Positions 1 to 60,985 of a stretch of DNA of 60,985 nt are shown here, piece by piece. The translations under genes were made by a program, and so were the position numbers. The notes below the pieces were generated by a model that ran no database searches, was not told the origin of the DNA, and saw nothing but the letters and a program-made list of their open reading frames with translations. Numbering within the stretch: position 1 is the first letter of the stretch; each line of letters begins with the position of its first letter. The DNA is from a virus (lineage: Duplodnaviria; Caudoviricetes): the IMG/VR virus record IMGVR_UViG_3300049043_000348, positions 1 to 60,985 of that record; one strand, given 5' to 3'.

Positions 1-237
1 ATGAAAAAAGAACAACTTCTAAACCTTGCAAAAATGAAAAGCGAACACTTAACGGCAAATTCAATGATCCGATTAACCGCCGAAAATAACTCTTTATGGC
101 TGTATAATTTTGGCGGGTTTATTTTTGTAGGTTACCAGATAGAAGAACCCGCAAATCTTTTATTTGATAAAAAAGAAATTTTTGAAATATCAGATAAAAG
201 AGGGAAGACCACCGCAATCGTTCAAAGATTATATTAA
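1..237 (+). CDS. Hypothetical early protein
   Basis: 78-aa ORF co-oriented with the early array; no recognisable motif. Confidence 0.6.
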   Translation: MKKEQLLNLAKMKSEHLTANSMIRLTAENNSLWLYNFGGFIFVGYQIEEPANLLFDKKEIFEISDKRGKTTAIVQRLY

Positions 238-245
238 ACAATAAC

Positions 246-264
246 GCGGGGGCAACACCCCCGC
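246..264 (+). repeat. Intergenic GC-rich hairpin, early-array copy 1
   Basis: GCGGGGG-CAACA-CCCCCGC perfect 7-bp stem, then ACATTTT and a C/A-rich leader. Confidence 0.8.
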
Positions 265-297
265 ACATTTTCCCCCAACACATAAAAACCCCAAACA

Positions 298-531
298 ATG
301 AACACACAACACACCACAGAAATTGATACCCAGACAATGAAGGAAACATTTTTGGAGTATATTAACGGCGATTTGACCATATCAGAAATGGCGAATAAAT
401 ACGGAATAAATACCGACTATTTAGAGGCACTAATCAAATACGGGGGAAGTCAATTTGAAGCCGAACAGATGACAAAAGTAAATACCCTTATCTGGGAAAA
501 AATTTCTCTTTTACAATTAGCAAAACATTAA
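298..531 (+). CDS. Hypothetical protein, possible HTH
   Basis: LTISEMANKYGINTDYLEALI resembles an HTH; A-rich leader. Confidence 0.55.
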   Translation: MNTQHTTEIDTQTMKETFLEYINGDLTISEMANKYGINTDYLEALIKYGGSQFEAEQMTKVNTLIWEKISLLQLAKH

Positions 532-544
532 CACCTATTTTATG

Positions 545-565
545 GCGCGGGGGAAGTCCTCGCGC
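545..565 (+). repeat. Intergenic hairpin copy 2, contains GGGAAGTC
   Basis: GCGCGGGG-GAAGT-CCTCGCGC then TATTTTT. Confidence 0.8.
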
Positions 566-597
566 TATTTTTACCACACACAAAAACCCCCTATTTT

Positions 598-1124: not shown

Positions 1125-1131
1125 TGATGAG

Positions 1132-1211: not shown

Positions 1212-1241
1212 TACATTTACCAAACACTAAAACCCCTACCA

Positions 1242-2743: not shown

Positions 2744-2771
2744 ATTTACCAAACCCCTAAAATTTAAACCA

Positions 2772-2954
2772 ATGGAAACAAGAATTAAATCTTTGGAATG
2801 GTGGAAGTCATTACCAAAAGAAAAGCAAATAGAAACAATAGACAAATGGAAATTAGTTACTGAGGATAGAAGAAAAAATTGGGAATTTGAATTGATCACT
2901 ACCTCATCAAGCACTATTGAATTTATTTGTAAAGAATTAAACATTTTCCCCTAA
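2772..2954 (+). CDS. Hypothetical protein
   Basis: METRIKSLEWWKSL; in-frame ATG after leader. Confidence 0.6.
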   Translation: METRIKSLEWWKSLPKEKQIETIDKWKLVTEDRRKNWEFELITTSSSTIEFICKELNIFP

Positions 2955-10292: not shown

Positions 10293-10562
10293 AGGATGAC
10301 TAACTTTATAGTCGTTTATTATATTTTCTTGCCTTCTATGGCCCTTATAGCGTCTCTGCAGTCCTCTACGTTCCTAAATGACAAGCTCTCCTTTGCGTAC
10401 ATAATCCGGGCCAGTTTCAGGGAGGGCATTTCCATTCCGTACTCGTTCCTGTACCTTCGGGCTATGTCTGTTTTTGTCGTCACAGATTGACGTACTTTAT
10501 TCCGTTGTCAATGAAGGTGTCTCCCTTATTCCACTTTTCTAATAACTGCTTTGTTGTGTAAC

Positions 10563-12307: not shown

Positions 12308-12334
12308 GGGAAGTCCTGACTGCTAAGACTTCCC
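12308..12334. repeat. Inverted pair of GGGAAGTC motifs (hairpin)
   Basis: GGGAAGTC-N11-GACTTCCC, intergenic. Confidence 0.8.
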
Positions 12335-12702: not shown

Positions 12703-12735
12703 TTTGTTTTGATTTTTATTGTTAATTATTGATTT

Positions 12736-13434
12736 TTATTGTGTTAGGGGAAGTTGTGGGCAATCTTTTAAATATACCCATTTAAAACCATAGGCTTGTT
12801 TGTAAACGCCTTTACAAACCTTTGAAACTAAAGACCTGCCATAAATCGTGTCTCTTTGTATTTGATGGCCAGAATCCCAAATTTTTATAAAATCCCCATC
12901 CATAGATAATCTGCACTATTTTTTTTGAAAGCTTTGCGGCTACTATATGAGCAGGCCCTTTTAATCCCTTCTGAATTTCTTATTCTATTAAATTCAGGAT
13001 TTTGATATACGCTTTTTAAATTATTGCTTACAGCATTTTTTTTGTTCTTCAGACTGAATCACGTTTTGCATAGCCTTTTTAATGCTTATAGACATCTTTC
13101 TTATCGTTTCTGGAGATCTTTTTATGACACATACCTTTCCGTCACCCCCGTCTGTCATATTTACTAAAATAGCCTGTGCCTAAATTAATATCTACCATAC
13201 AATTTTATAAATTCCTTTTCCTTTTGCACAAGCCTGCTAACCAAGTTAAGTTATCCATCAAATATTTCTACCTCATACGCTGTTTTAGAGGCAACCCGTT
13301 TCCAAAATTCACTTCTTTGCGAAGCTTTGGTTTGTTGCTCTTTAATACCTTTCATGCCCGTAGCCAACCCCGATATAAAAGGGTTCGTTTTTATCAAGCC
13401 TAATGTGTCGATACACATACACATTGATTCTCAT
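12736..13434 (-). CDS. GIY-YIG homing endonuclease with C-terminal NUMOD1-like domain (frameshifted)
   Basis: YVYRHIRLDKNEPFYIGVG...VNMTDGGDG...VSKVCKG.YKQAYGFKW. Confidence 0.75.
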
Positions 13435-16400
13435 TGCGCTAAGGGAAGTCTTGTCACGACTTCCCCGAGGCATACTACTTTCTTTTTTTGTTCCATTAAA
13501 ACTTTCATCATTGCTTTTAATTCAGCAACTTCAGCTTCTAACTCTTTGATTTTTTGTGTGTTAGGGGAAGTCTTAACACTTGGTTCCTCAAATTTAGCTT
13601 TGTATGCACTACTTGGCCCTGATGCTGATTCAGGAGCTGGTTCTGGAAGGTATCCTGTCATCAAGTAGTACACCGTTCCGTCAATTTCAACAGGTATGGC
13701 ATAGCCCGTAGATCCACCGATTGCAGTTCCGTAAGTCCCCAATTTCCAGCTTCCGGCGCTTCCCCAGAAGGTGCTGCGGTTTTTATTGAGCCTGCCAAAA
13801 GTTGAATTTCCATCTCCAGTAATGGCTAAATAATGCTTTGGATGTATCTCCAGCATAGTTTCTTAAATCTTATCAGTCATAATCACTTGAATTTGTACCA
13901 TGCCTAAAACTTACTATTATACCATTAACTACTTCCAGATAAGGCTCAGATGCACCAATGTCGCTTTTATGCCATATGCTGACTGTTGTATCTCACGTAG
14001 CAACTATAATTTTGTGCACAAATACCCTGCCCCATTCACTTGTAGCTTATAGTCTCCTGCATCGGAGGTTGTGTTTATTAGTAACTCTCCAGCACTTGTT
14101 ATTCTCATTCGCTCGGTAGCAGCAGTTCCAAATGCAAGAGGGAAGCTATTGTAATTCCAAACATAACTAACATCGCTTACTTGACCTACATAAAAACCAT
14201 CATTAGCACCTGTGCCTGAAGTTGGTGTTTGGTATAAAGTTGCAGCATTAGAATTGTAAACTGTTAGGATTCTCTGTGGGGAAGTCGTACCTATACCTAC
14301 GTTGCCAGAAGCTAAAAATGTTGCTACTGGAGTTGAAAACGTACTACCCCCGTTTGTTGTAGAAGGTGTAATCTCAAAAGCATTTGCGGTATTATATTGT
14401 GCAGCCGCTATCCAGCTTCTATATGATGAATTTACGCTATAATATAATGTGGTATTAGTTGTACCAATTGTAAGTCCGTTGGTTATGCGAGAACTTCCCG
14501 AAACATCCAGCTTATACCCTGCGTCTGTTGTTGTTCCCACAAGTACGTTGCCACCTGATGTGATACGCATTCTTTCGGAGCCATTAGTATAAAATCTTGT
14601 ATTATATGCTCCTTGTGTATTTATATATTGGTCAGTTCCAGTTGAATACATACCATCATAGATATATTCACTATATATAGAGCCACTTACTGCTTTAAAG
14701 TAACTTGCTGTTACACTACTTGAGAATGTAGCTGCACCTGTGGATGCAAGTGTAAAATAAATACTTGCACTTGCTCCTGCACCAAAACTTAATCCTCCAC
14801 TTGAATTACCTTCAATATATCCTCTAAAAGTATTACCACTTCTTAAAGTAATGTTTGGTTGTCCAGTTGTAGGATTAATGTCTAAACTGCTTGCTGAGCC
14901 ATTTATTGCAACATTCCCACTAAACCTACCTGTACCATTTACATCAAGTTTGTATGCTGGGGAAGAAGTGCCTATACCTAATCCAGTAGAGGTAAGACGC
15001 ATTGTTTCAAAGCCATCATTTTCAAATATCATATTTGAAGATGTGTCAACTGATAATTTACCCTTTTCTGTTGAGCCACTTCCAAATCTTAAAATCGCTG
15101 TTCCAGAAGAAGGATATATTCTAAACTCTCCAACATTTTTTGTCAATGATGTAATAGTAACAATGCTACCATCATCCGTTATTGCACTATTCCCTATTGT
15201 ACTTGTACCCGTAAACTTAGGTAGGTAGTTAGTAGTACCTGTGCCTGTTACAGGGTTAGTTAAAACACTTTGATATTGTGGAATGTTTAAAGTATTCCCT
15301 ACAAAGGTTGCAGCACCACTTGTTCCTGTTGTGGTAAGAGTGATTGTAGCTTGTTTGTTGTTAAAGGTATTCCAATCTGTACTACTTAGGTATCCATTAG
15401 AAGCTGTTCCTGCTTGAGATATTGATATTGTCGGGGAAGTCCCGCCACTTGAACTGATAGGAGATGTTCCCCCAACACTACTAACCTTTGTATTAGCAAG
15501 GGCAGCTACCGAATCAATACCTTTTTGTCTCCAAGCTCTTGTTGAAATAAGTAAGGTATCTATAGCGAGTGTCCCTGTAGTAGTGATAGTTCCCCCTGTT
15601 ATACCTGTTCCATTATTGGTAGCTACTGAAGTAACTGTTCCCCCAGCATCTATAAGAGTATCTGTTATACTAAGTCTTCCCGTAGCATCAATACGTAATT
15701 GTTTTGTGCCTGTGCCTGTGGGAAGTCCTGACATACGGACACCACGTTGAAAATAAGCCCCATTTGCTACTTGTAAAGCAGAATCAGGAGAGGAAGTTCC
15801 AATACCAACACTACCCCTTAAATAAGCATTAGCATTAGAATTAGAATATATCGAATACCTGTTTATACCTACATCAATAGAAGAATCAAGGTAAATTCCA
15901 TAAGAATTATTTATAGTTCCTGAGTTTCTCCAGTAATGCGTTCCGCCTGTAGTGGATATAAGGCCTTTACCCACAGAAATCCCGTACACAGCACCGATAG
16001 TAGAAGCTGCATTATTATTGTAAACACTTACTACTTGTCCAAAGGCTGTATCTATAGCACCCCCGTTATTATTCCAAACTTCGATTGTTTGCCCGTGTAG
16101 CTTATTAACTGTTCCTTGCTTGTTTTCAACGCCAGAAACAGAGCCGTAGGCATTAGTTACCGTTCCGGTTGTATTATTAGATACGATGTTATAACTTCCC
16201 CAAGCAATAGGCATTGTTCCAGATCCATTGTGATAGGTCCAAGCTTGCATAGATCGTAAACTTCCTGATGAGTTTTTTGCATTTGCGCTATCCGTACTTG
16301 CAGAAAACATTCCACCCATAGCTCTATTTGCAATAGAATCCCTGACTAAAGTAAGCCCTATGACACCTATAGTACGTGGATCAGCGGCGGCAGTTGTTGT

Positions 16401-23900: not shown

Positions 23901-26900
23901 TCTTAGCTAATCTATTTAAAGATTCTGCGTAGATCAAAGAGTTTACGTCTCCATCAAATTCAAAGGAATTAGCAAGATTTAAAGCTTCATCAATACCCAC
24001 TTCATCAATAACCCCTTTAGCTATTAATTCTGCCTCTTTTTGGCTCTTGGTTTGGTATCTTAAACCCTCTTTCTCAAAGCCAATTCTTGCTTCTTCTGGA
24101 ATATTCTTGGCCGTATAAAGCCTGTTTAGTAATGCTTTTTTCTTTTCTTTTGGGACATATTCTTCTTCTCCTTCGGTTTTGGTGGGTGTTGGGGGAACAG
24201 GTGGTACTACTTCTTTAAGCTTCGGGCCACCTTCTGCTGTAGGAGGGCGCCTTCTAACCGGAGGTACAGCCCCTCTTTCTGCTTCTCTGATAGCTTGTTC
24301 ACGCGTTGCAGCAGTCTCGGGTTCTTTTCCACCCTCTGCTTCAGGTTCTTCTGTAGTTGGTTCATATTCTTCTTTTTCAAATGATTGTTCATCAGCCATT
24401 TCCTCAACCCATTTCACAAGGTCTTTTTCTGGTAGCGTATCTAATTCCCTAGCAAGAGCAAGATCTAAATCTCTTTGCTTTGCCTCTTTTTCTAATTCTT
24501 GGAAATACTCATCTACGGAAACTCTTGTTACGTCTTGGCCAACTCTAACCTCTACGTAACCAGTCTCAGCCATATCCTCAAGTGAATTAAGAATAGCATT
24601 TGCTCCTTTGCTTGGGATTCCTTCGTTAAGGTCTTTTAGGGCATTTTTAATTTGCCTTGCATCCATCTTTCTCCCGTCAGCGCCGATTATGACGTTCGGC
24701 ATAAAAAATCCAAAATCATACCCATAAGCATCTGCTACTCCATTGATTCTATCAAATAAGTTATTTAGCTTTTCCCCTCTTTGTTTAAGTGGTACAAATT
24801 TTTTATCAATAGCCATATTGCTGTATGACTTATCAATAGCTTTAGCACCTTTCACTCTAATTCTGCCCTCTCTATCTACTCTTGTTTCAAAGCCAAGTCT
24901 TTTTGCCTCAATTAATAATTGATTTCTTTTTGCAAGACCTTCTGAAGATTTTAAGCCTAATCGACCCCTGCGTTGATTATTAAATTTAGAAACCTCATTA
25001 ACAAGCTTATTTACTTCGGTTTGCTTTCCTTCTGGAGCTGCGTAATTTCTAAGCCTTTTGTCTATTTCTTTTTGCGTAGCTTCAGCTTTACTTTTTTGGG
25101 CAGCCGCAATCCTTTCGACTGGCGGTTCCACTCCTCTACGTTCACCCCCTTCTTCTCTAACTCCTTCTTGTGCAGGTTGAAGTAAGCCCTCTGGGCCTTG
25201 CTCTGGTACGGCATATTCTTTAGTTTTAATTTCTTCTTCTGTTATGGGTGCTTCTTCTTTGTATTTGCCAGCTTTTATATCTTCAACTACCTTATCTAAT
25301 AAAACTGCTTCTGGAACTCCATTGGGGTAAAGCCTGCTTAATGTTTTACCAACCTCAACAGCTTCTTCTGGAGTATTAAATTCTATATTAGCAATTGTAC
25401 CAGTATCCCCAACTCCTGAAACATTTAATAAAGTTTTATCTTTAAAATCATTAACCCTATACTTATCTGTTTCAAAATAAACATTAGAGCCAGTTCCTAA
25501 TTGTCTTATCGGTTCAGCTTTTTCGGGTGCTGCGGGAACTTGTGGAATCGCTTTAGTCCCCTTGTTTAATGCCTCTACGGATAATTCTGGACCTTTAATA
25601 AAATTTATGTTTGGAAAAGCAAGTTTTAATTTATCGTACAAGTATATACTTCTACCATTTAAAACGACAGAAAATTCGTTTAGATTATTTCGGTCACCTT
25701 TAAGGGTTTTCCCGGGTTTAGCGATAAGCATAAAATCACCATCATTATAAGCGTCTACAATATGTGCGCCAGTTTCCATAGATCCGCTTAATAAGGCTTC
25801 ATCTCCGATTAATTTCCCTGTGCTTAAAATATTTAATAAAGCCTTTAATTGTTGTTTATGGCCTCCTCTTGTGATTCCGTGACCAGCCGTGCTTCTTAGT
25901 ATATCTTTTGGTAAATTATTGTACCCAATTCTGCCTATTATAAGATTTGGCTCAGTTTCATAAAAGTCAAATACTTCTGGGAATTCACCTCCGGTATCTA
26001 ATATGGGCTTTATCAATTCTTGATTTTCATCTACCCATTTTTTTATTTTTTCCTCAGATGCAAAATCTTCAATTTCTTTTATTAATTTTTTTTGTTCGGC
26101 TGCAGGTGCCACTTCTTCCCCGACCTCCTCAATCTTAATCTGTTCTCTTAATTGAGCTGCTCTTTCTTTAGGTATTCTAGGTGTAGGGGGAACTTGTGGT
26201 GCTTTACCTAATTCGTAATCCGCTAATGATTGAGCTACTCTAACCCTAACAGAAGGCTTACCATTTATAACCCCTTCTCCAACTATTTTATCTTTAAACA
26301 CTTCAGGCACTTCCTCTCTTGAGCTATATTCAAAAGAGGCTATTTTACCCTCTTTAATATCTTTTGCTTGTTGCTCTATGCTTGGTTTTTCTGTTGGGAG
26401 AACTTGTGGTGCAGCTTCTTCTCCAAAGGAAGGCTCTGTAGTTTCCTCAAAATAAGCCTTAACACCTTTTGATTTTTGCGCATCCGTAAGTTGTGACCAA
26501 AACGTATCTCCTTCTAATCTTGAATCAAAGTAAGAGTGAGTCATTTCACCTTTTTCAGGATCAAAGTATTCTACTCTATATTTTTCTTTTGCTTCAGGAA
26601 CTTGTGGCGTTTCGGTAGCTCTATCAATGATAGCATCTTGTTCGGCTATCTGAGCGTCTATTTTTTTAGCAAATACAGGATCTAACCCTTTCTTCTGTAG
26701 TTCTAATTCTTTTTCTTTTGTATAGCCTCGAGTACCTCTGCGTTCTTTTTGTATTGTTCGGGAACAACTGACCGTACTTCTTGAACTTTTGTGTATTCAT
26801 TTTTAATCTCATCGGCTTGCGCGTCAGTAAGTTCTCCAGTCGCTTCAGATACATCAAGCATATCTTGCAACTCTTCGGGTTTAATATCTAATTTAGCAAT

Positions 26901-37863: not shown

Positions 37864-38730
37864 TTAATTTAGAGAATCTTTATAAACGAATCTGTACCCG
37901 TTACGCAAGGGTTTTCCGAGGTTAGCTGCATCCTTAATGGTTTGGTGCCACAATCCGAGAGCCGCTGCCGCCTCATTAGGATTTGAATACTCTACCACAT
38001 CTTCCCCAACATAACAAAGAACAGCACGTTTTTTAAGTAATAATTTAACTCCTGATATATCAATCTTCATTGGATAACCTTCTTCTCTTCTTCTAAAGAA
38101 ATAACCTTTGGTATGCTTTTGAACGCCATTAACAGTATCGTTTACGCATTTACGATCTAAGCCAAGAGCATCTGCCGCTGCCTTTATGTAAGGATATTCT
38201 CCTATAAAATCGCCATTTCGATCATAAGCAACAACTGGCACATATTGAGCTTCTTTCGCTTTTTTGTGACATTCGGCAGATGGTTTAACCCCATTAGCTT
38301 TATTGTACTCGCTTACACTTTTTGCAATTTTACGTTTTGTTTCCTCTAACAGCTTCTTACCCCAATTCGGAGCTTTTTCTCCTCGTCTTTGTTTGGCCCT
38401 TTCTACCCTGTTTTTATCATTCTTCCAAGACTCACGATAATCGCCTCCTCTTGTAAGATTCATACCTTCAAGGCTATCCTCAACGTAAGTTTTAAATTTA
38501 GCAACCCAATAAATTTCTTTTTCATTTAAAAGTTCTTTTGGAATATTATCCTCAACCACTTCAAAAACGTGGGCATCCCATCCGTATTTACGAATACTTC
38601 TTAGTATAAGACTTTTACCATCTCTTTTTCGTAAACTACGATACTGACGCTGCCTCCCTTTGGAGGTTTGAGCCGTTTGCCCTATATAAATTCTTCCAGT
38701 TGGACTTGTTATTTTATAAATTAATCCCAT
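37864..38730 (-). CDS. GIY-YIG homing endonuclease (NUMOD3/NUMOD1)
   Basis: IYKITSPTGRIYIGQT...GMNLTRGG...EETKRKIA...YIKAAADALG. Confidence 0.88.
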   Translation of the reverse strand: MGLIYKITSPTGRIYIGQTAQTSKGRQRQYRSLRKRDGKSLILRSIRKYGWDAHVFEVVEDNIPKELLNEKEIYWVAKFKTYVEDSLEGMNLTRGGDYRESWKNDKNRVERAKQRRGEKAPNWGKKLLEETKRKIAKSVSEYNKANGVKPSAECHKKAKEAQYVPVVAYDRNGDFIGEYPYIKAAADALGLDRKCVNDTVNGVQKHTKGYFFRRREEGYPMKIDISGVKLLLKKRAVLCYVGEDVVEYSNPNEAAAALGLWHQTIKDAANLGKPLRNGYRFVYKDSLN

Positions 38731-48040: not shown

Positions 48041-48695
48041 ACAATAGTTTTTGCGTTTAAGGGGGTAAGTCCGACAAGTAGTTTGCCTTCGTTAACTAGG
48101 TCTGTTAAGTATCCGTCTATGGCTATTACTTCTTCCCTTTCATTGTCTTCGTCTGGGAAGTGTCGAAACCTAATTAATCTTTCTTCTCTCCCTTGTAAGC
48201 CTTGAAACACTATTTCGTAGTCACAGGCTTTTAGTGTTCTCACTACATTTCCTTTCATACTTCCTGTTGTTACATATAATACATCAGGAACAAGCTTGGG
48301 TTCAATACCTTCAAGCATACCCTCATAAGGTCTATAAACGCGAAGCCCAAACTCAAAATTCTTTAATGGCTTCCATTCTTCCTCGTCAAGCCAAGCGAAA
48401 CATTGCTCAATAGGACAAGAATAAATTTTGATATCACTTCCCTCAACACTACCAGAAAGAGGCTTATAGTTTAAAACTTTATAACTTTCGTGTATGATAT
48501 TAGGATGAATAAGAATCTCTGCTCCATCTTTAATACCTTCTCCGTCAATTACAATAGCATTAACAGGTTGGGTTTCTCTTCTGTTAAGGTTATTCCAATC
48601 CCTTTCTAATCTAATGGTAGTGCCATCCTCAAAAGTGTGGCTATTCTTTTTTCGTGGTCTACACTAATAATAACTCTGCCTTCTACAGCTCTCAT
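48037..48695 (-). CDS. Hypothetical protein, possibly GroES-like (indel near 48650)
   Basis: MRAVEGRVIISVD...NAIVIDGEGIKDGAEILIHPN. Confidence 0.45.
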
Positions 48696-48724: not shown

Positions 48725-49051
48725 TTACTTCTTCTTATATCGCATCATTGGTATATTACTTTTGATACGATTAACGATATCTTCTGATCTCTTGTTTTCA
48801 ATAACTTCTTTAATTCTTTTATCTTCAGCAGGTGTTGTTTTTTTGGGCTTTGTTCCGTAAAAATCTTCTTTCTCAAGAGCCTCAATCATTGCACTTTCTC
48901 TTTGCTTATCTGTTAAAGGCTTTTCTGTTTTCTTTATAATAATCGCCTTTTTAACAACTGGCTTTTTACCATAAAAATCTTCTTTCTTTAAGGCATTTAC
49001 CATACCTTTCTCAAGGTCTTTATCTTGTTTTGTAACTCTATCTGGTCTCAT
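48725..49051 (-). CDS. Basic protein with internal duplication
   Basis: ALKKEDFYGKKP / ALEKEDFYGTKP. Confidence 0.6.
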   Translation of the reverse strand: MRPDRVTKQDKDLEKGMVNALKKEDFYGKKPVVKKAIIIKKTEKPLTDKQRESAMIEALEKEDFYGTKPKKTTPAEDKRIKEVIENKRSEDIVNRIKSNIPMMRYKKK

Positions 49052-49368
49052 TATTTTTTATTTTTGTTACGTTCAGAAATGTTTTTAGCTTTTGCTTTAG
49101 CATCTGCCTTTGATGATGCTCCCCACGCTCTCAGGGAAAGAAGAAGGCGTGTTGGTTTCCCGTCTTTATATTCAGGCCCCGGCATACCGCCCATACGAGC
49201 AAGGAAACTTGCTCTACGAGGGTTATCTCCAGACTTAACGGGAGCCTTTAAGGTTCCGCCTGTTTCTGCTTTATAAGAAGCTCGGCCTTTCTGATTCAAG
49301 CCACCGCCTGTTAAGTTCTTACCCTCTTTGCGAGACCAAGCGGCTGTTTTAAATCTTAACTTAGGCAT
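49051..49368 (-). CDS. Basic phage protein (DUF6321-like)
   Basis: AW.RKEGKN..GGLNQKGRASY...LKAPV...RRASFLARMGG...LSLRAW. Confidence 0.7.
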   Translation of the reverse strand: MPKLRFKTAAWSRKEGKNLTGGGLNQKGRASYKAETGGTLKAPVKSGDNPRRASFLARMGGMPGPEYKDGKPTRLLLSLRAWGASSKADAKAKAKNISERNKNKK

Positions 49369-50665: not shown

Positions 50666-50816
50666 TTGTCATAGCTTTTCTATTTCTTTTTTAAATCATT
50701 AAATATGTTACGCCAATAAAATCTTTCATAATTTCTATAAAATTCAATACCACATATAGTATACAAAAAAAATTCTTTAATCCTATACATACTTACATTT
50801 ATAAATTCTAATAATC

Positions 50817-52253: not shown

Positions 52254-52355
52254 TCCAAGTTTTCTTGAGTCTTTTGTATACTTTTTTCATTGTGTCGGGG
52301 GAAGACGCCGTGATGATTTGCGCTAATTTGCGTAGCTTCTTTGCTCTTGTTTTTC

Positions 52356-52574
52356 TCATTGTTTCCAATTTATAGGTACTTGAATATTTTCTCCATTCAT
52401 TCTATTTGGATAAACTCTTATCTCGTCATCGTAAAAATTACGAACTGAACCATCTTCATAAAATACAACCTTCCAAACTGTATTTACATCTGGGCCGTAA
52501 TCTATCCACGCTATAGCCTTTCCGTAACCAAGTGGGGTATGAACGTCTATTCCTGCTTTTAATTCGTGTATCAT
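52356..52574 (-). CDS. Hypothetical protein
   Basis: VHTPLGYGKAIAWIDYGPDVN. Confidence 0.6.
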   Translation of the reverse strand: MIHELKAGIDVHTPLGYGKAIAWIDYGPDVNTVWKVVFYEDGSVRNFYDDEIRVYPNRMNGENIQVPINWKQ

Positions 52575-53365
52575 TGTGTATTCAGTTTACCAAAGTAATA
52601 GTCAAGACTTCCCTGATGATAAAAATCATACCCATTTGGCCCTACTGGTATGCAGTTGGGAAGTTGTGGGCATATTTCCAAGATACGAGGAACTTTCAGA
52701 GCTTCGGCTATCTGATAGCAAAAACTTTGATTGCCAAGAAAAAATTTACACCCCTTAATCCATTGAGCAAGTTCATAAAAGTCATCAACCTGAAGAAGCT
52801 CAAGGTCAAGATCCCACGTCTTGCAAAAGAGATCTCTTTCGGATTGAAGTCCCGCAAAGACAATGTTTTCCTGATGAGCTTTTAAAAAGAAGTAATTGGT
52901 TAGATAGTTTCTGTACCGCTGGGTAAAGTTGATTATGATTTTATTATTCTCTCTTGCCTTAACATCTAAATAAGGAACAGATAGGTCTGATGCCATTTGA
53001 GGGAAAACATAGTTAAACCACCTATTGAGGCTTCCTCTTGGTTGATTGGTATATCTTTCCTGACGTATTAAGTCAAAGTCTATATCTGCTTCTTCCCCCT
53101 TGAATACTAAAAAATCTTCTATGTAGTCTTGGGAAGATATGAGCCTGTGTAAATTATCAAACATATACTGCGACATACAGATAGGCTCGTCATATTCATT
53201 CTTAAACGGATGGATGCTATCAGGAGTTCCCGCACCCTGCATACCTATCCTCTGGTAAACGATTCCCTTGCGTCCCGTATCTTCCCACATCTTCTTAATA
53301 CCAGCCATAAAGCTAATCAGGTCTCCAGAAGGGGAAGAAGTCTTATATTTTAAAGGATTTTGCAT
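52571..53365 (-). CDS. GT-B/GT9-like glycosyltransferase
   Basis: SGDLI...ELAQWIKGCKFFLGNQSF..IAEALKVPR. Confidence 0.6.
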   Translation of the reverse strand: MQNPLKYKTSSPSGDLISFMAGIKKMWEDTGRKGIVYQRIGMQGAGTPDSIHPFKNEYDEPICMSQYMFDNLHRLISSQDYIEDFLVFKGEEADIDFDLIRQERYTNQPRGSLNRWFNYVFPQMASDLSVPYLDVKARENNKIIINFTQRYRNYLTNYFFLKAHQENIVFAGLQSERDLFCKTWDLDLELLQVDDFYELAQWIKGCKFFLGNQSFCYQIAEALKVPRILEICPQLPNCIPVGPNGYDFYHQGSLDYYFGKLNTQ

Positions 53366-53740: not shown

Positions 53741-53894
53741 ATGCCAATTTGTTTCTGAGTTCTTCCAGCTCATTTTTAAGCTGGTCTAAGGATTGTTCCA
53801 CGTGGAGCTTTAAGGCAGCCAATATTTTAACTTGGTCTACCACGTCAGACTTGGAAAGTTCCTTGATAATCTTTTCAATGTTTGCTTTTGCCAT
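53739..53894 (-). CDS. Small coiled-coil protein
   Basis: MAKANIEKII; coupled to upstream stop. Confidence 0.5.
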   Translation of the reverse strand: MAKANIEKIIKELSKSDVVDQVKILAALKLHVEQSLDQLKNELEELRNKLA

Positions 53895-54109
53895 TAGTCT
53901 ATGTATTTGTTTGTGATAAAATAGGATACGAGCTGTGTGGTGTTCTTGCAATTAAACTTTGCTCTTACAAGTTGTAGTTTGTAGGCAAATGTATTTTTGT
54001 TAAGACCGACCTTTTCAGCTACCCCTTTTGCTTTCTCGCCACTCGCCAAGAGGCGAACCCAAAGGATTTCTTCCTCTGTCGGAATGGGCGGTGTGTAGTT
54101 TTCTTCCAT
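53894..54109 (-). CDS. LuxR-type HTH regulator
   Basis: TEEEILWVRLLASGEKAKGVAEKVGLNKNT...KFNCKNTTQLV. Confidence 0.8.
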   Translation of the reverse strand: MEENYTPPIPTEEEILWVRLLASGEKAKGVAEKVGLNKNTFAYKLQLVRAKFNCKNTTQLVSYFITNKYID

Positions 54110-54807: not shown

Positions 54808-55209
54808 ATGATACGAAAAAAATTGGTCTGGGTAAATGGATGCTTTGATATACTGCATCCGGGCCACTTTGAACTTTTTAGATTTGCCTCTGAATTAGGC
54901 AATCTTCACGTTGGAATAGACGCTGACGTGCGAATTAGAAAGATGAAGGGGCCGGGCCGACCAATTAATGACGAAGGGTTTAGAGCCGATATGCTATCTT
55001 CCCTGACATTCGTAGAAAAGGTTTACATTTTTGAAACAGATCAAGACCTAAGAGCAATAACCAAAAGACTCAAACCTGATATAATGGTTATAGGTGAAGA
55101 ATATAAAGACAAGACTATTATAGGAGCCGAAAATGTAAAAGAGATTATATTCTTTAAAAAGACATTAGACTCTACAACTGAAATTATTAATAAGATTAAG
55201 AATGGATAA
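54808..55209 (+). CDS. Nucleotidyltransferase, RfaE/HldE domain II-like
   Basis: NGCFDILHPGH, GIDAD, KGPGRPIN, STT. Confidence 0.88.
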   Translation: MIRKKLVWVNGCFDILHPGHFELFRFASELGNLHVGIDADVRIRKMKGPGRPINDEGFRADMLSSLTFVEKVYIFETDQDLRAITKRLKPDIMVIGEEYKDKTIIGAENVKEIIFFKKTLDSTTEIINKIKNG

Positions 55210-55567
55210 AAAGCCTATTTGTACAGACGGATGCCATATAAAAAAAGGCTGGGGCAAAGAAATCGTTATCATAAACAACGAGCTTTATTGTGGTAAGATT
55301 CTTGTTTTTAAGTCTGGCTATCAATTTTCGATGCACTTCCATATTATCAAACAAGAAACGTGGTATGTAAATAAAGGCAAGTTTCAATTTAGATGGATTA
55401 ATACTGAAGACGCAAGCATACATTCTATGGAATTGAATGTCGGGGAAGTCGTGACTATCCCTCGCGGTATGCCGCATCAATTAGAAGCACTTGAAGACGG
55501 AGAAATCTTTGAAATATCAACACAACACTTTGATTCAGACTCGTACCGCGTATGGAAAGGAAATTAA
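55202..55567 (+). CDS. Cupin sugar isomerase-like protein
   Basis: KGWGKE, YCGKIL, SMHFH..KQETWYV, PHQLEA, EISTQHFDSDSYR. Confidence 0.8.
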   Translation: MDKKPICTDGCHIKKGWGKEIVIINNELYCGKILVFKSGYQFSMHFHIIKQETWYVNKGKFQFRWINTEDASIHSMELNVGEVVTIPRGMPHQLEALEDGEIFEISTQHFDSDSYRVWKGN

Positions 55568-55743
55568 CCCCTAGCTTAAAAGCTAAAGACCTTACAGTAA
55601 GAGAACACATAGCGATTAACCTATTGCCTATGATGCTTGCTACCGCTTCAGACCTTGATGATCCGAAGGATGTCTGTGATGAGGCTATATCTATTGCTAA
55701 CCTTTTAATTGATAGGCTAAATGATGAAGAAAATATACGTTGA
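55552..55743 (+). CDS. Hypothetical protein
   Basis: LTVREHIA...AISIANLLIDRL. Confidence 0.55.
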   Translation: MERKLTPSLKAKDLTVREHIAINLLPMMLATASDLDDPKDVCDEAISIANLLIDRLNDEENIR

Positions 55744-56014
55744 TATTGATGGAACTATTTGTAATACTGTTGAGGGAAAATATGAGGATAGTACCCCCAT
55801 TCAGGAACACATAGATAAAATTAATAATATGTATGACGCTGGTTGTTACATAGTTTACTATACAGCCAGAGGTCAGCGTAGCGGCAAAGACTATTGGATG
55901 CTTACAAACGACCAACTTGAAAAATGGGGTTGTAAGTTTCATAAGCTTAATATGGGTAAACCTGATTATGATTTAATGATTTGTGATAAAACTAAACGTA
56001 TCGAAGAAATATGA
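55721..56014 (+). CDS. Minimal HAD-family phosphatase
   Basis: YVDIDGTIC, YTARG, GKP..D..ICDK. Confidence 0.8.
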   Translation: MMKKIYVDIDGTICNTVEGKYEDSTPIQEHIDKINNMYDAGCYIVYYTARGQRSGKDYWMLTNDQLEKWGCKFHKLNMGKPDYDLMICDKTKRIEEI

Positions 56015-56759
56015 ACTTCTTAATTATTGGGGAAAAATGTAAAGATGTATTTGTGTACGGGGAAGTCACAAGGCTCAGTCCTGAAGCTCCTGTGCCTGTA
56101 TTCAATCCTACTCGTAAAGTAGAAAATTTAGGAATGGCTGCCAATGTTTACAATAACTTATTTAATCTTATAGAAAAGAAAGCATCTTTAATCGGTCATT
56201 TTTCCAATGATAATATCATAAAAACAAGATACGTTGACGATAAGTCAAACCATTACTTTTTACGCATAGACGAAAACGACAAAACAGAGAGTATCAGGAT
56301 TTCCCCAGCCTAACAAAAGTTATCCATAGTTCAGATTGTATTATTATATCAGACTACGATAAAGGTTTTATATCACTAAACGACATTTGGTCAATTTGCC
56401 AAGAAGCAAAAGAAAGTGCAGTAATTTTCTTAGACACAAAGAAGAAGTTAACACCTGTCATCTTTGATCAGGTTGATTTCGTAAAGTTCAACGAATCAGA
56501 ATACAATCTCAACATAAAAAATTCAGAAGAATTTTCAAATAAGATAATAGTAACGAAAGGAGGAAACGGAGCATACTACGATGGCGAGGACTTCCCCAGC
56601 GAGAAGAAATTAACCATTGATGTATCAGGAGCAGGAGATACGTTTTTAGCCGCATTAGCTTTCTATTTTATGACTTCCCGCGACATAAAAATAGCCATAC
56701 AAGAAGCCAATAAAGCAGCCTGCAAAGTAGTATCAGAAAGAGGAGTTTCGGTTATCTAA
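56011..56759 (+). CDS. PfkB sugar kinase, RfaE/HldE domain I-like (indel near 56305)
   Basis: SPEAPVPV, GMAANV, IISDYDKG, DVSGAGDTF. Confidence 0.85.
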
Positions 56760-56804: not shown

Positions 56805-56917
56805 GCTTAATCTGAATTTAATGAAATCAATTAAAAACATATTTCAAAATACTGGCTCGTCCTGTGACGTTTCCTTCTCTTCATTGAGTTCGGATTAAGC
56901 AGCGTTATAGGCGAGCC
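56805..56917 (+). ncRNA. Structured 5' leader RNA with two long interleaved helices and a uORF
   Basis: 56805-825 pairs with 56880-900 (21 bp, 3 G-U); 56854-871 pairs with 56901-917 (17 bp, 3 G-U, one bulge). Confidence 0.65.
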
Positions 56918-57098
56918 TACTTAATTTTTATTTTATGATACACGAAACAATTTTATTAATTAGGCAAGAAGTGGTTAGAGGTAGAAATTACCTTAAAAGA
57001 TGGTTACATTAATTTCAAACAAGATGAAAAATTAATTTACATCAACCAAATACAATGGGAAACATTAAAAACCTTTATTGACAAAGAAATTGAAAAAA

Positions 57099-57715
57099 AT
57101 GGCTAAGAGATTTATTGCAACTGTAATTTGGGACGAGGACTGGTTTTCTCAAAATGCCGGCAGAATACAAACTTTTTTGGTTTTATATGTTATCAAGTTG
57201 CGACCACGCAGGACTATTTAAGGTCAATTTGAGGTCATTTTCTAGTCTAAATGATAAATTGAGAAACAAGAAGAAGCTTTAAAGTATTTTAATAATGGCA
57301 AAGATAAAATCATGCTTGAAAATCAATCAGTTTGGCTTATTGAAGACTTTTTTGCCTTTCAGTATGGAACTACTTTAACCCGAAAAACAGAGTTCACCAA
57401 AGCATAGAAGACCTCTATATTTTATATGGTAACCATCAATTAGACTCAAATTAGAGGTCTAAAAGACACTAAGGAAAGGGTTAAGGATAAGGATAAGGAT
57501 CTCGATAGTAATCTAATGGATTATCAATCACTTGGAAAAGGGGGTATGGGGAAAAACTTTAAAACAGGGTTATGTTTTGGATTTAGGCAACAACAGGGTT
57601 TATTTCGATCCTGAAAAAACAATTTGGCAAGAACTTGGGCCTGAACAAAAAAAACTTTCGATTTCAAGAGAAATGAAAGTTACCGCGAATCATCGAAGGA
57701 AAAATTTTTTAAAAA
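57099..57715 (+). CDS. Replication initiator-like protein (many indels, end uncertain)
   Basis: MAKRF...W.EDWF...YKLFWFYMLSSCDHAGLFKVN; KDKDKD linker. Confidence 0.55.
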
Positions 57716-59624
57716 ATGTATTTCGACCAACTCACAAAATTAGGATATCGCAGATTGCGCAAGCGCGGCGCGTCAAGAAAAACAACTTGTCCTCAATGCT
57801 CTGCTGGAAGAAAAAAGAAGACCGATCCGTGTTCTTTCGGTGAACATTAACGAGGGAAGTTACAATCGTTTTAATTGACAAACTGGCAGGGTAATGTTAG
57901 GATCTTTTATCCCAAGAGAAACGATAAAAAAATTTGAAAAACCAAGTGAGGTATATGCTGAAAAGCATTGACTTAAACGAAAAAATTAAAAAGTTTTTTA
58001 GCGACCGAGCAATTTCTGAAAAAACTTTAAAAAAATTTTTTATTCACGGCAAAGAAGAGTGGCTGCCTCAGACAAACGAAAAGGTCGCTGCATTGTCTTC
58101 CCTTACATTCGTAATAGTGAAATTGTTAATGCAAAGTATCGGCGACGGTAATAAAAATTTTAAACTTGTAAAGGGAGCAGAATTGGTTTTTTTTGGAATG
58201 CAAACCCTTGAGGGCCGTAGGTGCGCAATTATCGTGGAAGGAGAAATTGATGCTCTTCCTGCCTATGAAGCCGGTTTTGGTCAAGTACTATGAACCAACC
58301 TGTAATCAAGACGGGGAAGTTGTGGAACACGAACTTGGTAGGTTTGCGGTTTTGTCGGTTCCAAATGGCGCAAGTGCAGGGAACAACAGGTTGGAGTATT
58401 TGGATAACTGTGCAGAGTATCTAATCGACATCGAAGAGTTTGTGATAGCAACCGATAACGATACGGTCAAGCCCTTCGGGATGAGTTAATACGCCGTTTC
58501 GGCGTGGAAAAGTGCCGAACTGTCAGGTGGGAAATCCTAAAATCGCACCAGACGCACGGAAACGGCCCAAAAATCGCACCAAAAGATTTCAATGAGGTAT
58601 TGTGCCACTTTGGAAAGAGGGCCTTAAATCGCTTGTATTGAGTTCGCAGGAAGTTCCGGTGGATGGAATTTTTTATGTGGAAGACCTGGAGGATACAATG
58701 TTGAGAAAAAATTCAATAAAAGGTGTTCAGCTCGGGGATACGACTTCGTTTCCAAGAACTCGATACGATTTTTAGATGGAGAAAAGGTGATATAAATGTG
58801 TTTATAGGTTATGCGAATGGGGTAAAACTTTTTTTGCTCTTCAATTAATGTTAATTAAAAAAACTATTTCGGGATGGGTGGAGGTGGGCGGTATTTAGTC
58901 CAGAAAATTATCCCAGCAGATGATTTTTATGACGATATGGTAGAAATGTATGTTGGCAAGTGGATTAAAAATATGTCAAGAGAAGAATATATAGAAGCGA
59001 TTGATTTTATAAATAATCACATTTACTTTATTTACCCAAGTGATGAACATTCCATAGAAAATATACACGAAAAATTCAAGTATCTTATTATGAAAAAAGG
59101 ATTAAATGATGATTCAATAAATTTAATCAATTAGATAAAACACAAAGAGCATACGAAAGGGATGACCAATATATGAGTGTTGTATTTAAGGATATAAAAG
59201 GTTTGCGCTTATGAATAGAGTTTGCTATAACGTAGTTATGCATCCTAAAAATCCACCAGCTCCAAATGGTAATGCTTTACCAGTTGTTGGCCCTTATGAT
59301 ATTGCTCAGGGTGCTATGACAAATAATAAAGCAGACCAAATATTATCTTACTATAGACCAAACTATCACATAAATCCAGATGATACAAGAGTGGAACTAT
59401 ACTAAAAAAGTGAAAAGACGTAAAACTGGCGGGAAAATAGGAATGGTAGAATTGAATCTTAATTGGAACATAAAAAGATTCTTTGATCCTATTACTCAAA
59501 TGCCTTTCAACCAAAAAGAGGCTAAGAGAACCACATCTTCCCACAACCCAATAACATAACACAAGGAGAGATATCCAATAACTGGCTACCCTCTAAAGAT
59601 GATAGTACTGAAGCACCTTTTTAA
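57716..59624 (+). CDS. TOPRIM primase-SF4 helicase (Twinkle/T7 gp4-like; many indels)
   Basis: IIVEGEIDAL, VLSVPNGA, IATDND, KD.NE, VVMHP, YDI..GA..NKAD. Confidence 0.75.
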
Positions 59625-59658
59625 TGTAGGGGAAGATATCACACAGTAAAAATTTATT

Positions 59659-60325
59659 ATGGTTACTATTATAAACAAAGATTTTCAGAGAGTGTGTTTT
59701 ACCCGACGGCTTGGTTATTACCGATACCTCCGTATAATCAAGGTTATTCTTATAACTCTTACAAGGATAGAATTAGCGAAGAATCTTATATAGAATTATT
59801 TGTCAAAAATACCAAAGCCTTTGCGTTATTGTTCATTATCCAGAAGAAACCATAAACTTATCTACCTAAAGCGTTAAATATAAAATGCGAACAAAGCCTG
59901 TTTCTTGGGTTTATGATCGGGATATGCAGGCGAACAAAGTGGCGATTTAATTGGTTTGGTGAGGACTGTGAGCCGGATCCGAGAAAAGTTAGACAAGAGT
60001 CTAAAAATTTAAAAGACAAAAGAATACAAGCTAGAATTGCTGCTGGTAACTCGGGGTGCTACGCTTTATGATTGGTGGGAAATTAATCAAGTGAAAAATG
60101 TAAGCAAAGAAAAAACAAGTCACCCTTTGTCAAATACCGGAAGAGATAATTAAAAGAATTATATTAACAACGGCTAATAAAGGTCAAATTCTTATTGATA
60201 CCATTCTGGGGGAAGTGGGACAACGGCAAAGAGTTGCAAATGATTTAGGGTTTAATAGTTTCATCTATGAAGTCGATGAAAAGTATATTCAAATAATAAA
60301 CAATAGAATAAACACTAACCAATGA
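59659..60325 (+). CDS. N6A/N4C DNA methyltransferase (many indels)
   Basis: D-PPYN near 59725; DPF.GSGTT near 60200. Confidence 0.65.
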
Positions 60326-60787
60326 TAATTCACAAAAACACACACGCACCTAAGACTTCCCCGACTACTAATTAAACCCAAGCTATTAGCTTATAGAGTA
60401 GGATTTACAGAATCTTGTAGGTATGATTTAGGAATGAGAGACCAAGGAGATATTAATAAACTATTTGGAGTAGGATATTTTCCCTCACACCACGAAAACT
60501 CTGTACGAGTAGGATGGAACTATGACATAGTATCAGGAAGGATGAACATCCTTGCTTATTGGTATGTAGGGGGAAAACGCGACTGGCAATACCTAAGAAA
60601 GCGTAGATGTTGGAGTAATGTATTATTTTAAAATGTATATTGACGATGAGTATGCACAGATTAGATATTGCAGGGAAGAAACTACCCATTAGATGTCGAC
60701 AGTACACCTGTTTGCTTTTTATTAAGACCTTACTTTGGGTGGGAATAGAACTGCGCCACACGATATTATAATTGACTTAAATAAATT
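60322..60787 (+). CDS. Hypothetical protein (indels)
   Basis: DINKLFGVG...HHENSVRVGW. Confidence 0.45.
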
Positions 60788-60985
60788 ATGAAACCACTAC
60801 AAAGATCTGTAACAGGAGAATTTAAAGAAGTTAAAAGAGTACTTGCGTCTGGCGTTAGTATTCGCGAAGCTGCGAGACTATGCAAGGTGAGTTATTATTT
60901 AGCTTGGCACGTCCGTAAGGGAAGTTATGACGGAGTAGCTATCTGTCTGAAACATTTAAAAAAAAGGAAAATGAAAAATATTTAG
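60788..60985 (+). CDS. Small HTH protein
   Basis: LASGVSIREAARLCKVS. Confidence 0.6.
   Translation: MKPLQRSVTGEFKEVKRVLASGVSIREAARLCKVSYYLAWHVRKGSYDGVAICLKHLKKRKMKNI

Follow-up and report, generated by a model that had tools for sequence, protein, structure and literature searches.

A dispersed GGGAA element in a phage genome

The window analyzed here is the whole genome of a freshwater Bacteroidota phage (60,985 bp; G+C 38.0%). Sites of the element, taken individually or as pairs from the site list, and three genes bearing on their possible readers lie as follows.

202..60925, both strands: dispersed set of 131 GGGAAG sites (76 plus, 55 minus)
545..575, plus strand: terminator-like hairpin and T-run, intergenic in the early region, core in the 5' arm or loop
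1128-1160, 2066-2100, 2448-2475, 2706-2745: similar early terminator-like hairpins (families D10, D18 and D19 for the group)
12308..12334, both strands: hairpin-forming convergent pair GGGAAGTC...GACTTCCC
13443-13465, 36875-36901, 41900-41926: more convergent pairs
12727..12759, plus strand: near-consensus full element (T-rich tract, GTGTTAG, GGGAAG, TTGTGG), core at 12748; families D3, D5, D7
13546..13578, plus strand: near-consensus full element, core at 13565; family D5
14942..14974, plus strand: tail-fibre site of the 33-nt family D13 (three members; others 16517-16549, 18017-18049)
24172..24204, plus strand: GGGAAC variant element within a 1597-aa gene; family D3
25513-25545, 26167-26199: further variant elements
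37992..38017, minus strand: full element within a minus-strand gene, hence in sense orientation, CTTCCC at 38001; family D6
48132..48160, both strands: divergent pair CTTCCC-N17-GGGAAG
35101-35135, 53092-53136: more divergent pairs
49051..49368, minus strand: very basic 105-aa DUF6321 protein, a candidate DNA-binding protein
53894..54109, minus strand: 71-aa GerE/LuxR-type (sigma region 4-like) HTH protein, a candidate binder only
57716..59526, plus strand: remnant of a T7 gp4-like primase-helicase gene, homologous to intact relatives through at least seven frame segments

On the plus strand we counted 76 GGGAAG and 55 CTTCCC, close to the approximately 75 and 50 of the initial annotation. Its chance expectation of 13-15 was, if anything, too high, as base composition (zero-order) predicts 5.2 and 11.0. 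With an observed/expected ratio of 14.6, GGGAAG is at the top of all 6-mers. Markov-1 and Markov-3 simulations (n = 30 each) gave 8.7/17.5 and 28.6/28.9 GGGAAG/CTTCCC, respectively, and a Markov-5 null yields the observed counts by construction. Enrichment is 8-fold for the 6-mer and 3.3-fold for the 5-mer GGGAA, of which there are 269 sites in total (135 plus, 134 minus), including the 131 GGGAAG sites. The mean spacing of GGGAAG is 467 bp. Per-orientation GGGAA gaps in three genomes have medians of 206-353 bp, 90th percentiles of at most 963 bp and maxima of at most 2,342 bp.

The excess does not vanish when codons are preserved. In 71 ORFs of at least 60 aa (47,022 bp), we observed 41 sense sites compared with 20.3±3.7 in 100 synonymous shuffles (shuffle maximum 31), and 53 antisense sites compared with 8.9±2.9 (shuffle maximum 17); permutation of codons gave 17.2 sense and 5.1 antisense sites. 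Codon-shuffle z values for sense/antisense sites were 6.0/12.3 in the window, and 14.6/21.0 and 13.5/18.7 in its relatives G001 and G002. All six frames are occupied (sense frames 0/1/2, 5/18/18 sites; antisense frames, 12/26/15), in line with the earlier statement that no single peptide explains the sites, and 37 of the 131 are intergenic or within small ORFs. The 1597-aa gene, in which variant elements lie, is devoid of GGGAAG across 4,059 bp. Repeats, RNA families, promoters and, for most sites, terminators were considered as the identity of the sites and rejected.

Core, flanking context and conservation

The strict core is GGGAA, which corrects the earlier wording GGGAAG. Variants at core positions 1-5 lack the flank signature, and flank scores above the 99th percentile of random flanks are found at 20 GGGAAA, 14 GGGAAC and 7 GGGAAT sites. 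The asymmetric context extends over approximately 34 bp (-17..+16), with a T-rich, C-poor stretch at -16..-6, then KKYNG, GGGAA and GWNNTGRY, and is identical across intergenic, sense and antisense sites. Its strongest signal is on the 3' side of the core at +5..+12, with W at +6, T-G/A at +9/+10, and C or G disfavoured; A or T is present 3' of the core in 123 of 131 sites. The proposed upstream TGY is borne out: TGY plus 2-3 nt precedes 64 of 131 sites, compared with 5.8% of all positions (binomial p about 2e-43). All of the example coordinates given earlier for such flanked copies (55438; 11600/20595/33095/44202; 34054/51508/56054; 2073/12308/15720) are in our site list. Close neighbours are avoided, with 21 tandem pairs less than 20 bp apart compared with about 56 expected and 17 divergent pairs less than 30 bp apart compared with about 42 expected, an exclusion that follows partly from flank composition itself.

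Of the aligned sites, 50-79% are retained in relatives, two- to threefold better than other 6-mers (21-30%), and each relative has 6-16 sites that are missing from the window. Selection thus acts on site density rather than exact place. Relatives with a terminase identity of at least 80% carry the GGGAA motif, and more distant ones have no motif or a different one: G003 is marked by GGCGG/CCGCC instead, and G005 is not enriched for GGGAA. The elemoA phage, which encodes Erf and an exonuclease, is likewise unenriched for GGGAA. The terminase itself had no family match in Pfam. Based on the codon shuffles, the equal flanks in coding and non-coding sites, conservation with turnover, and clade specificity, our results support GGGAA(G) as a positively selected DNA-level recognition code, as the initial annotation had proposed, and not a peptide or codon effect.

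Sampling of 552 Bacteroidota genomes (401 + 151) revealed no enrichment of the motif in any of them. The frequency of GGGGAAGT was at most 0.07 per kb in the 401 genomes, compared with 0.62 per kb in the phage, and that of CGGGGAAGT at most 0.022 per kb in the 151 genomes of the family of the one metagenome-assembled genome (MAG) holding a related terminase contig. That MAG contained 995 GGGAAG compared with 937 for the reversed control, and in 400 kb of G440 GGGAA was unremarkable among its ten permutations. Host enrichment of the DUS type and polarity of the KOPS/SRS type, both raised earlier as parallels, were tested and neither was found: no end-directed polarity was detected (p = 0.80 in the window, 0.54 in G001), and no strand switch suggestive of replichores.

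Candidate functions of the element

The favoured, still tentative reading takes the element for a Chi-like signal to the AddAB helicase-nuclease of the host. Linear duplex phage DNA would enter the cell or arise by breakage, and AddAB would load at its ends and degrade until it met a correctly oriented GGGAA(G) on the 3'-ended strand. It would then spare that strand, leaving a T-rich 3' tail for RecA, and the spared genome could cyclise or form concatemers via host recombination. Ends of a permuted genome and restriction breaks might occur at any position, so sites would be needed everywhere, in both orientations and in every gene frame. We infer AddAB as the reader, permutation of the genome, and an action of the flanks on nuclease cutting and RecA loading. 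The GGGAA gap coverage suits an end-processing signal, and the lineage-specific motifs, GGGAA in one clade and GGCGG/CCGCC in G003, are as a host-specific Chi would behave. Bacteroidota use AddAB, and the AddAB Chi of Bacteroides was not known in 2010 (PMC2887965), so no known sequence speaks against GGGAA.

Several observations bear on the Chi-like reading. No recombinase or nuclease inhibitor was recognised among the window ORFs scanned, and the elemoA phage with its Erf and exonuclease is unenriched, both of which favour it. The pairing of many Chi with no Rec module is blurred by G001 and G002, which encode an exonuclease homologue that motif-free G005 has as well. Also against it are the lack of an enriched host among the genomes sampled; the context of approximately 34 bp with neighbour exclusion, longer than any described Chi; the missing polarity, which is strong in LLS and MD8; the site density, several times that of P1; and the ends of 44 perfect-identity tracts common to relatives, which are no closer to sites than random positions. 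Host enrichment is not required of a 5-nt Chi, so its absence from the genomes sampled weakens the Chi-like reading and does not refute it.

The element could also serve as the priming site of a T7 gp4-like primase-helicase, either as TTCCC (primer pppGGGAA/pppGGAA) or as the GGGAA strand with a second contact a few nt away; chance alone would supply too few copies of so long a recognition sequence in an AT-rich genome, which would account for its enrichment on both strands. We consider this unlikely. In relatives the gene is intact and specifies a 615-638-aa protein carrying CHC2 zinc ribbon, Toprim and DnaB_C domains, per-strand spacing fits Okazaki priming, and the T7 site architecture (PMC12839067) resembles the strict pentanucleotide with W at +6 and T-G/A at +9/+10. 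Yet the zinc-binding domain of unenriched G005 is almost identical to that of strongly enriched G001, G407-G409 carry the motif despite a more divergent domain, and the window retains full motif density with its own gene broken into segments. GGGAA contains no pyrimidine to template a purine start, which to our knowledge all known primases use. No strand switch hints at replichores. A better fit for that primase is GACC(C), whose enrichment in G001, G002 and G005 (z 6-9) is confined to the sense strand. Similarly improbable is a sequence-specific, IHF-like bending or coating protein of phage or host, whose role would be to order the genome during replication or packaging or to protect it. Three patches about a helical turn apart (T-tract near -11, core at 0-4, TGR at +9..+11), the same in coding and non-coding sites, a core-N4-T-K-R spacing equal to that of the IHF consensus, neighbour avoidance and a near-equal excess in both orientations would fit a duplex-binding protein. 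Candidates are the GerE-type HTH protein, common to motif-bearing relatives and not detected in motif-free ones, and the basic DUF6321 protein, with 93% mean identity across 21 motif-bearing loci but a homologue also in motif-free G005. These gene-motif correlations amount to no more than shared ancestry, the scanned window ORFs yielded no DNABII, HU, IHF or Dps-like gene, and the exclusion of neighbours is in part a product of flank composition. There is no evident selective reason for such site density, and we know of no phage that requires hundreds of specific architectural sites.

Protective DNA modification at the element, for example by a sugar added via phage glycosyltransferase and heptose-nucleotide genes, is very unlikely. 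The phage encodes a DUF5672 and GT9-like protein, a 264-aa GT9-like protein, a cytidylyltransferase-like enzyme, a cupin, a HAD-like protein and a SAM methyltransferase; the 478-aa transferase has matches at 18 of the 29 enriched loci and at 5 of the 19 without enrichment; and GGGTC/GACCC occurs twice compared with about 49 expected, a mark of the strong restriction-type pressure on these genomes. Nothing ties these enzymes to DNA, however, genes of this kind also act in the glycosylation of virions or host surfaces, and we know of no earlier case in which a modification target is enriched. It is hardly credible that the motif is functionless in itself and arises from biased mutation or repair, codon-pair bias, repeated peptides, or transcription signals such as promoters and terminators. 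Eight of 131 sites are terminator-like, 21% form stable hairpins compared with 7% of shuffled controls, the GGGAA baseline tracks gene orientation, and a repeated peptide may account for part of the likeness of the three tail-fibre sites. This reading is largely refuted by the excess outlasting both synonymous and codon-order shuffles. The use of six frames, the flanks shared by intergenic, sense and antisense sites, the near-equal sense and antisense counts in G001 late genes (57/52) and the lack of depletion of one-mismatch neighbours of the core also argue against it, as do the absence of a downstream -10-like signal, of base-pairing covariation among sites (maximum mutual information 0.055 bit) and of any Rfam match.

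Among the three options of the initial annotation, the Chi-like shield is the best-fitting candidate, given the phage precedent (PMC12315714) and the both-strand sites of P1. The results speak neither for nor against a role in packaging or entry or a condensing protein. Should the element prove Chi-like, calling it an undescribed system would go too far, as Chi-enriched phages have already been published.

Comparison with known systems

DNA uptake sequences abound in host genomes, KOPS show polarity, and cluster A mycobacteriophage stoperators, about 30 per genome, are intergenic and oriented with transcription. Like these and SRS, the element is a dispersed, asymmetric, lineage-specific word; unlike them, its sites are mostly genic, in both orientations, and neither enriched in the Bacteroidota genomes sampled nor polar. 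The IHF consensus is WATCAA-N4-TTR with an upstream A/T tract. Like IHF sites, the element is asymmetric and spans about 34 bp, with an A/T tract ahead of a 5-6-bp core that ends in AA and is followed by N4 and T-K-R. The two differ in core sequence, the window ORFs scanned gave no DNABII gene, and IHF sites are not known to be enriched genome-wide. Firmicutes AddAB-type Chi sequences are 5-7 nt long. The G-rich, asymmetric core of 5-6 nt is similar; no host-genome enrichment or special skew was seen in the genomes sampled. The B. subtilis AddAB Chi is 5 bp (PMC2887965), and Chi has a position-specific 3' flank at nucleotides 4-7 on its 3' side (PMC5041463); the strongest flank signal here also lies 3' of the core, at +5..+12.

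In a T7 primase site, an 8-nt A/T-rich spacer separates a pentanucleotide from a TA/TG/GA/GG dinucleotide, where C abolishes binding; 177 pentanucleotide sites lie on the lagging templates (PMC12839067). The element resembles such sites in pentanucleotide, A/T-rich spacer, T/G-A/G dinucleotide and disfavoured C (PMC12839067, PMC6136900). It differs in that it does not track the zinc-binding domain across relatives and its core lacks a pyrimidine, and T7 sites are only mildly over-represented.

Chi-enriched phages in print are P1, LLS and Pseudomonas phage MD8, which lack a recombination or inhibitor module of their own (PMC12315714). As in these phages, the top over-represented word of the window is short, asymmetric and located within genes; like Chi relative to their hosts, it is far denser than in the Bacteroidota genomes sampled. 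In the host of MD8, the Chi word ranks only 43rd (PMC12315714). Their reader, RecBCD, and 8-nt sequence are established, unlike the putative AddAB reader here, and the sites of LLS and MD8 are polar and clustered near one end, unlike those of the window. P1 has both-strand, interspersed sites as in the window: its first 48 kb contain 26 GCTGGTGG (14 plus, 12 minus) compared with 1.3 expected, about 20-fold on both strands. At one site per 230-470 bp, the element is 4-8 times as dense as Chi in P1, and its context reaches approximately 34 bp.

The GGGAAG element and its excess over null models

On the plus strand of the window, GGGAAG has the highest observed-to-expected ratio of all 6-mers, with 76 copies alongside 55 of its complement CTTCCC. 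The expected counts of the two words are 5.2 and 11.0 under a zero-order model, 8.7 and 17.5 under a first-order Markov model, and 28.6 and 28.9 under a third-order Markov model; the 131 sites together compare with about 16 expected at zero order. ORFs contain 94 of the 131 sites, the other 37 being intergenic or in small ORFs, and all six frames are occupied. Synonymous shuffling of 71 ORFs gave 20.3±3.7 sense and 8.9±2.9 antisense copies compared with 41 and 53 observed, counts that no shuffle reached. Since the motif has itself raised part of the codon usage that the shuffle retains, this test is conservative. Compared with synonymous shuffles, the over-representation reaches z values of 5-21 in either orientation, beyond what codons and composition account for. 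Synonymous and codon-order shuffles, together with the six-frame usage, rule out an origin in peptides or codons. The initial annotation had proposed a selected DNA-level code; the underlying observation is real and strong, the excess survives codon shuffles, and the interpretation is sound. Every site position it reported is correct in our site list, and the upstream TGY that it described is found at 64 of the 131 sites, compared with 5.8% in the background. The core is followed by A or T at 123 of the 131 sites.

GGGAA is the strict core of the element: sites with one change within core positions 1-5 lack the flank signature, and the variants GGGAAA, GGGAAC, and GGGAAT have it. About 170 strong element sites are contained within the 269 GGGAA. 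Numbered from the first G of the core as position 0, significant base preferences span -17 to +16. On the 5' side, -16 to -6 is T-rich and C-poor, followed by G/T at -5 and -4, T/C at -3, and G at -1; on the 3' side the preferred bases are G (+5), A/T with G never found (+6), T (+9), G (+10), a purine (+11), and a pyrimidine (+12). This pattern is identical across intergenic, sense, and antisense sites, and it recurs in the sub-lineage of the related genomes G001 and G002 with a weaker -5 to -1 part. No covarying positions were found (maximum mutual information 0.055 bit), and thus no fixed helix is encoded. A repeat search independently retrieved the element as loose 23-33-nt families with copies 64-93% alike, including GGGAAC copies inside a 1597-aa gene in which GGGAAG is absent for 4 kb. 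Overlap between neighboring sites is avoided. Hairpins hold a minority of sites. Convergent pairs number four, and several hairpins between early genes are accompanied by T-runs.

Several conventional explanations were rejected. A dispersed, MITE, REP, or mobile repeat does not fit unique flanks and sites that are gained and lost in ungapped alignments of relatives, and a structured RNA element does not fit the lack of Rfam matches and of base-pairing covariation. Promoters or terminators were discarded given no orientation rule, no -10-like element downstream, and merely 8 terminator-like sites among the 131. A polar sequence of the KOPS/SRS type would require a strand skew switching at origin and terminus, which is not seen, and one-mismatch neighbors of the motif are not depleted as a bias of the mismatch-repair type would have it. 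For 44 perfect tracts of at least 45 bp shared with relatives, the ends lie no closer to sites than random positions do (14.6% versus 10.3% within 20 bp of a site, in a weak test), and the motif is not visibly tied to mosaic or recombination junctions.

Genome setting, relatives, and host

The window comprises the entire record, a single contig of 60,985 bp with 38.0% G+C. Its gene content is that of a tailed phage, with large terminase, portal, virion protein, and tail-fibre genes (minus strand), and small plus-strand genes flank the minus-strand virion block. Features of the window referred to in the text are as follows.

Window features (coordinates, strand, description)
282-300, 580-600, 1222-1244, 1422-1444, 1900-1927, 2121-2155, 2750-2774 (+): conserved box AAAACCCC(T/A)A(C/T)C(A)ATG directly upstream of early-gene start codons (repeat families D4, D8, D12)
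8544-10495 (-): metallophosphoesterase gene with an intein-like insert (weak Intein_splicing, LAGLIDADG, and Hint matches); its first ~58 codons (10328-10495) are in a different frame
15483-18381 (-): two tail-fibre genes with common internal repeats of 102-183 nt and 65-75% identity (repeat families D1, D2)
38796-40232: best-conserved virion protein gene
49051-49368 (-): DUF6321 protein of 105 aa, very basic and glycine-rich
50144-53365 (-) and 54808-56313 (+): sugar-nucleotide/transferase cluster with a SAM methyltransferase, DUF5672 plus GT9-like, a GT9-like 264-aa protein, a cytidylyltransferase-like (heptose-1-P adenylyltransferase-like) enzyme, a cupin, and a HAD-like protein
57716-59526 (+): stretch homologous to a primase-helicase, in at least seven frame segments

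The conserved start-codon box may be a signal for early translation or transcription. The metallophosphoesterase insert is missing from the 336-aa homologue of G001, and the different frame of the first codons suggests a further frameshift.

Cultured relatives come no closer than Flavobacterium and Cellulophaga podophages, with just 28% terminase identity. No DNA match to the window was found in the named phage collection, and all near-identical words came from metagenome contigs (Logan contigs) of freshwater or lakes. By means of the terminase, 55 related IMG/VR loci were retrieved, and five relatives (G001-G005) were obtained in full or in their available part; G001, of 70.6 kb, is complete according to CheckV, and G003-G005 are fragments. 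GGGAAG occurs at 1.4-2.4 per kb in all loci with a terminase identity of at least 80%, with the exception of L015, a 9-kb relative that keeps merely 1 of 12 sites. Across 18 close loci, 50-79% of the aligned window-site 6-mers are retained, compared with 21-30% for all other 6-mers; for the five loci whose terminase identity is 80%, the corresponding values are 28-39% and 16-17%. The relatives each carry 6-16 sites absent from the window. Sites are thus conserved above other 6-mers and yet gained and lost, indicating that selection maintains the word and how densely it occurs, and not particular positions.

G001 contains 150 GGGAAG compared with 34 copies of the reversed word, and 395 GGGAA. 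Against codon shuffles, sense-strand GGGAA and TTCCC reach z values of 14.6 and 21.0 in G001 and of 13.5 and 18.7 in G002, with an approximately equal absolute excess in both orientations. By contrast, there is no GGGAA excess in G003 (69% terminase identity), in which GGCGG/CCGCC is enriched in both orientations relative to codon shuffles (z 10.6 and 6.5) without flank preferences. This word pair was counted 108 times in 31.5 kb versus 15 expected in G003, which is the contig of L022, with loci L063 and L064 also noted. Neither G004 nor G005 has a motif of this two-strand kind. Several small genes are common solely to the motif-bearing relatives, as far as the fragments G003-G005 can be compared, a confinement to be read with caution because common descent gives the same pattern. 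The motif is absent from the distant relative elemoA, a Flavobacterium phage (NC_055852.1, L095) that belongs to the nearest cultured group. This phage has 19 ACCCTCT/AGAGGGT in 50 kb versus 2.5 expected, which may be a different dispersed motif. Literature searches found no relevant report on GGGAAG in phages among the matches listed, and none on over-represented phage motifs.

A separate word, GGGTC/GACCC, is nearly absent from the window (2 copies, at 5801 and 24963, versus ~49 expected) and has 0 copies in nine close relatives (L001-L004, L007, L010, L013, L014, L021), with normal counts in sister relatives (L005, L006, L008, L009, and others). Its scarcity looks like restriction-site avoidance tied to the host of this sub-lineage.

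The sole match to the terminase among bacterial assemblies is a 2.4-kb contig at 64% identity, binned with a Ferruginibacter metagenome-assembled genome (MAG), and this match is too weak for naming a host. In the MAG, GGGAAG is found 995 times and the reversed word 937 times; its density is 0.29 per kb in a candidate host genome as against 2.15 per kb in the phage. Among 401 evenly drawn Bacteroidota genomes, none came near the phage density of GGGGAAGT (highest ratio to control 3.4, from 47 copies), and among 151 genomes of the family of the MAG, none came near that of CGGGGAAGT; these large scans counted extended 8-9-mers. Across 400 kb of G440, a closed genome of the same family, GGGAA is ordinary among its own permutations. 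These counts show no more than that the motif is not a general feature of Bacteroidota genomes.

Candidate readers of the element

The reading ranked second takes the sites to be recognition sites of a T7 gp4-like primase-helicase. An intact gene for such an enzyme is present in G001, G002, and G005 and in the related genomes G407-G409 and G411, and the element resembles a T7 primase site, which is reportedly selected by its pentanucleotide along with an A/T-rich spacer and a T/G-A/G dinucleotide (PMC12839067). Yet covariation of the primase zinc finger with the motif across relatives was negative: the zinc-binding domain is nearly identical in motif-free G005 and in G001, and motif-bearing G407-G409 diverge more. 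The GGGAA core, moreover, offers no pyrimidine to template a purine start, and another word, GACC(C), shows enrichment in G001, G002, and G005. It is this domain mismatch, the pyrimidine-free core, and the GACC(C) enrichment that place the primase second. No functional primase is evident in the window, where, compared with G407, 1-nt indels and one deletion of 4 nt disrupt the homologous stretch; this reflects a genuine pseudogene or else local sequencing error. The GACC(C) enrichment concerns the sense strand only, with z values of 6-9 against synonymous shuffles (loci L056-L062 and L067-L069), and could reflect either a codon-pair effect or recognition by the shared primase.

A possible though doubtful alternative is that the element is a lineage-specific phage code of about 34 bp instead of a host Chi, read by a protein at 270-400 places. 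Such marks would tell phage from host DNA or organize replication or packaging, and sister lineages would swap the code for other words (GGCGG). Candidate readers are a clade-restricted sigma-region-4-like HTH protein, the ultra-conserved basic DUF6321 protein, and a virion protein. Across 21 relatives, the mean identity of the DUF6321 protein is 93%, compared with 87% for the best-conserved virion protein gene; its domain also terminates larger phage proteins (PHROG matches), and our literature search found no paper mentioning DUF6321. A duplex-binding architectural protein could explain the IHF-like spacing of the footprint, with its similar bipartite architecture and A/T tract, but the scanned window ORFs gave no match to the DNABII family, and we consider this reading unlikely. 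It is very unlikely that the element is a DNA-modification target served by the sugar-nucleotide and transferase genes of the phage, a cluster for which virion, host surface, and DNA are all candidate targets. That the motif has no function is the least credible of these readings, and mechanisms not listed here share about a fifth of the probability. If the element is not a Chi, a 34-bp code at several hundred copies, maintained at a cost in protein-coding freedom, points to an undescribed genome-wide DNA-protein interaction in phages.

A Chi-like reading and known systems

The likeliest mechanism, which we put forward tentatively, is a new and extreme form of a known phenomenon, the enrichment of Chi in phage genomes, here within a phylum that lacks a known Chi. 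The helicase-nuclease of the host (AddAB) would recognize the element, attenuate its degradation, and load RecA. In three genomes, a correctly oriented GGGAA is found within a median of 206-353 bp and is never more than 2.3 kb away, a dense coverage that matches the need of a permuted genome with short terminal redundancy. Neither a recombinase nor a nuclease inhibitor of its own was recognized among the window ORFs, most small ORFs being without a family. Bacteroides uses AddAB, and the Chi of Bacteroides AddAB was not known in 2010 (PMC2887965). Regarding context, Chi activity depends on the 3' flank (PMC5041463), and titles cited in PMC3763553 indicate a debate over the GT-rich surroundings of Chi. 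Arguing against the Chi-like reading are the context of ~34 bp, the very high site density, an exonuclease homologue present in G001 and G002, the failure to find motif enrichment in the candidate host genomes searched, and the reliance on a presumed permuted packaging mode.

If Chi-like, the element would be the first candidate Chi sequence for Bacteroidota AddAB, revealed by phage genomes. The rule of "no recombination module, many Chi sites" would then apply to uncultured freshwater podophages as well as to P1 and the lambdoid phages, here as an unusually dense, two-stranded, and context-dependent variant. Whatever its mechanism, the motif offers a practical marker separating sub-lineages of these phages, and it may aid host assignment.

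Among known systems, P1 is packaged by headful, and its first 48 kb contain 26 Chi (14 plus and 12 minus, interspersed) versus 1.3 expected. Cyclization of P1 requires host RecA and RecBCD (PMC12315714). Chi in P1 is two-stranded and intragenic, the same pattern as that of the phage GGGAA element. By contrast, Chi is polar in LLS and MD8, whose genomes have fixed ends, whereas the motif of the window is non-polar, end-directed polarity being found neither in the window (p = 0.80) nor in G001 (p = 0.54).
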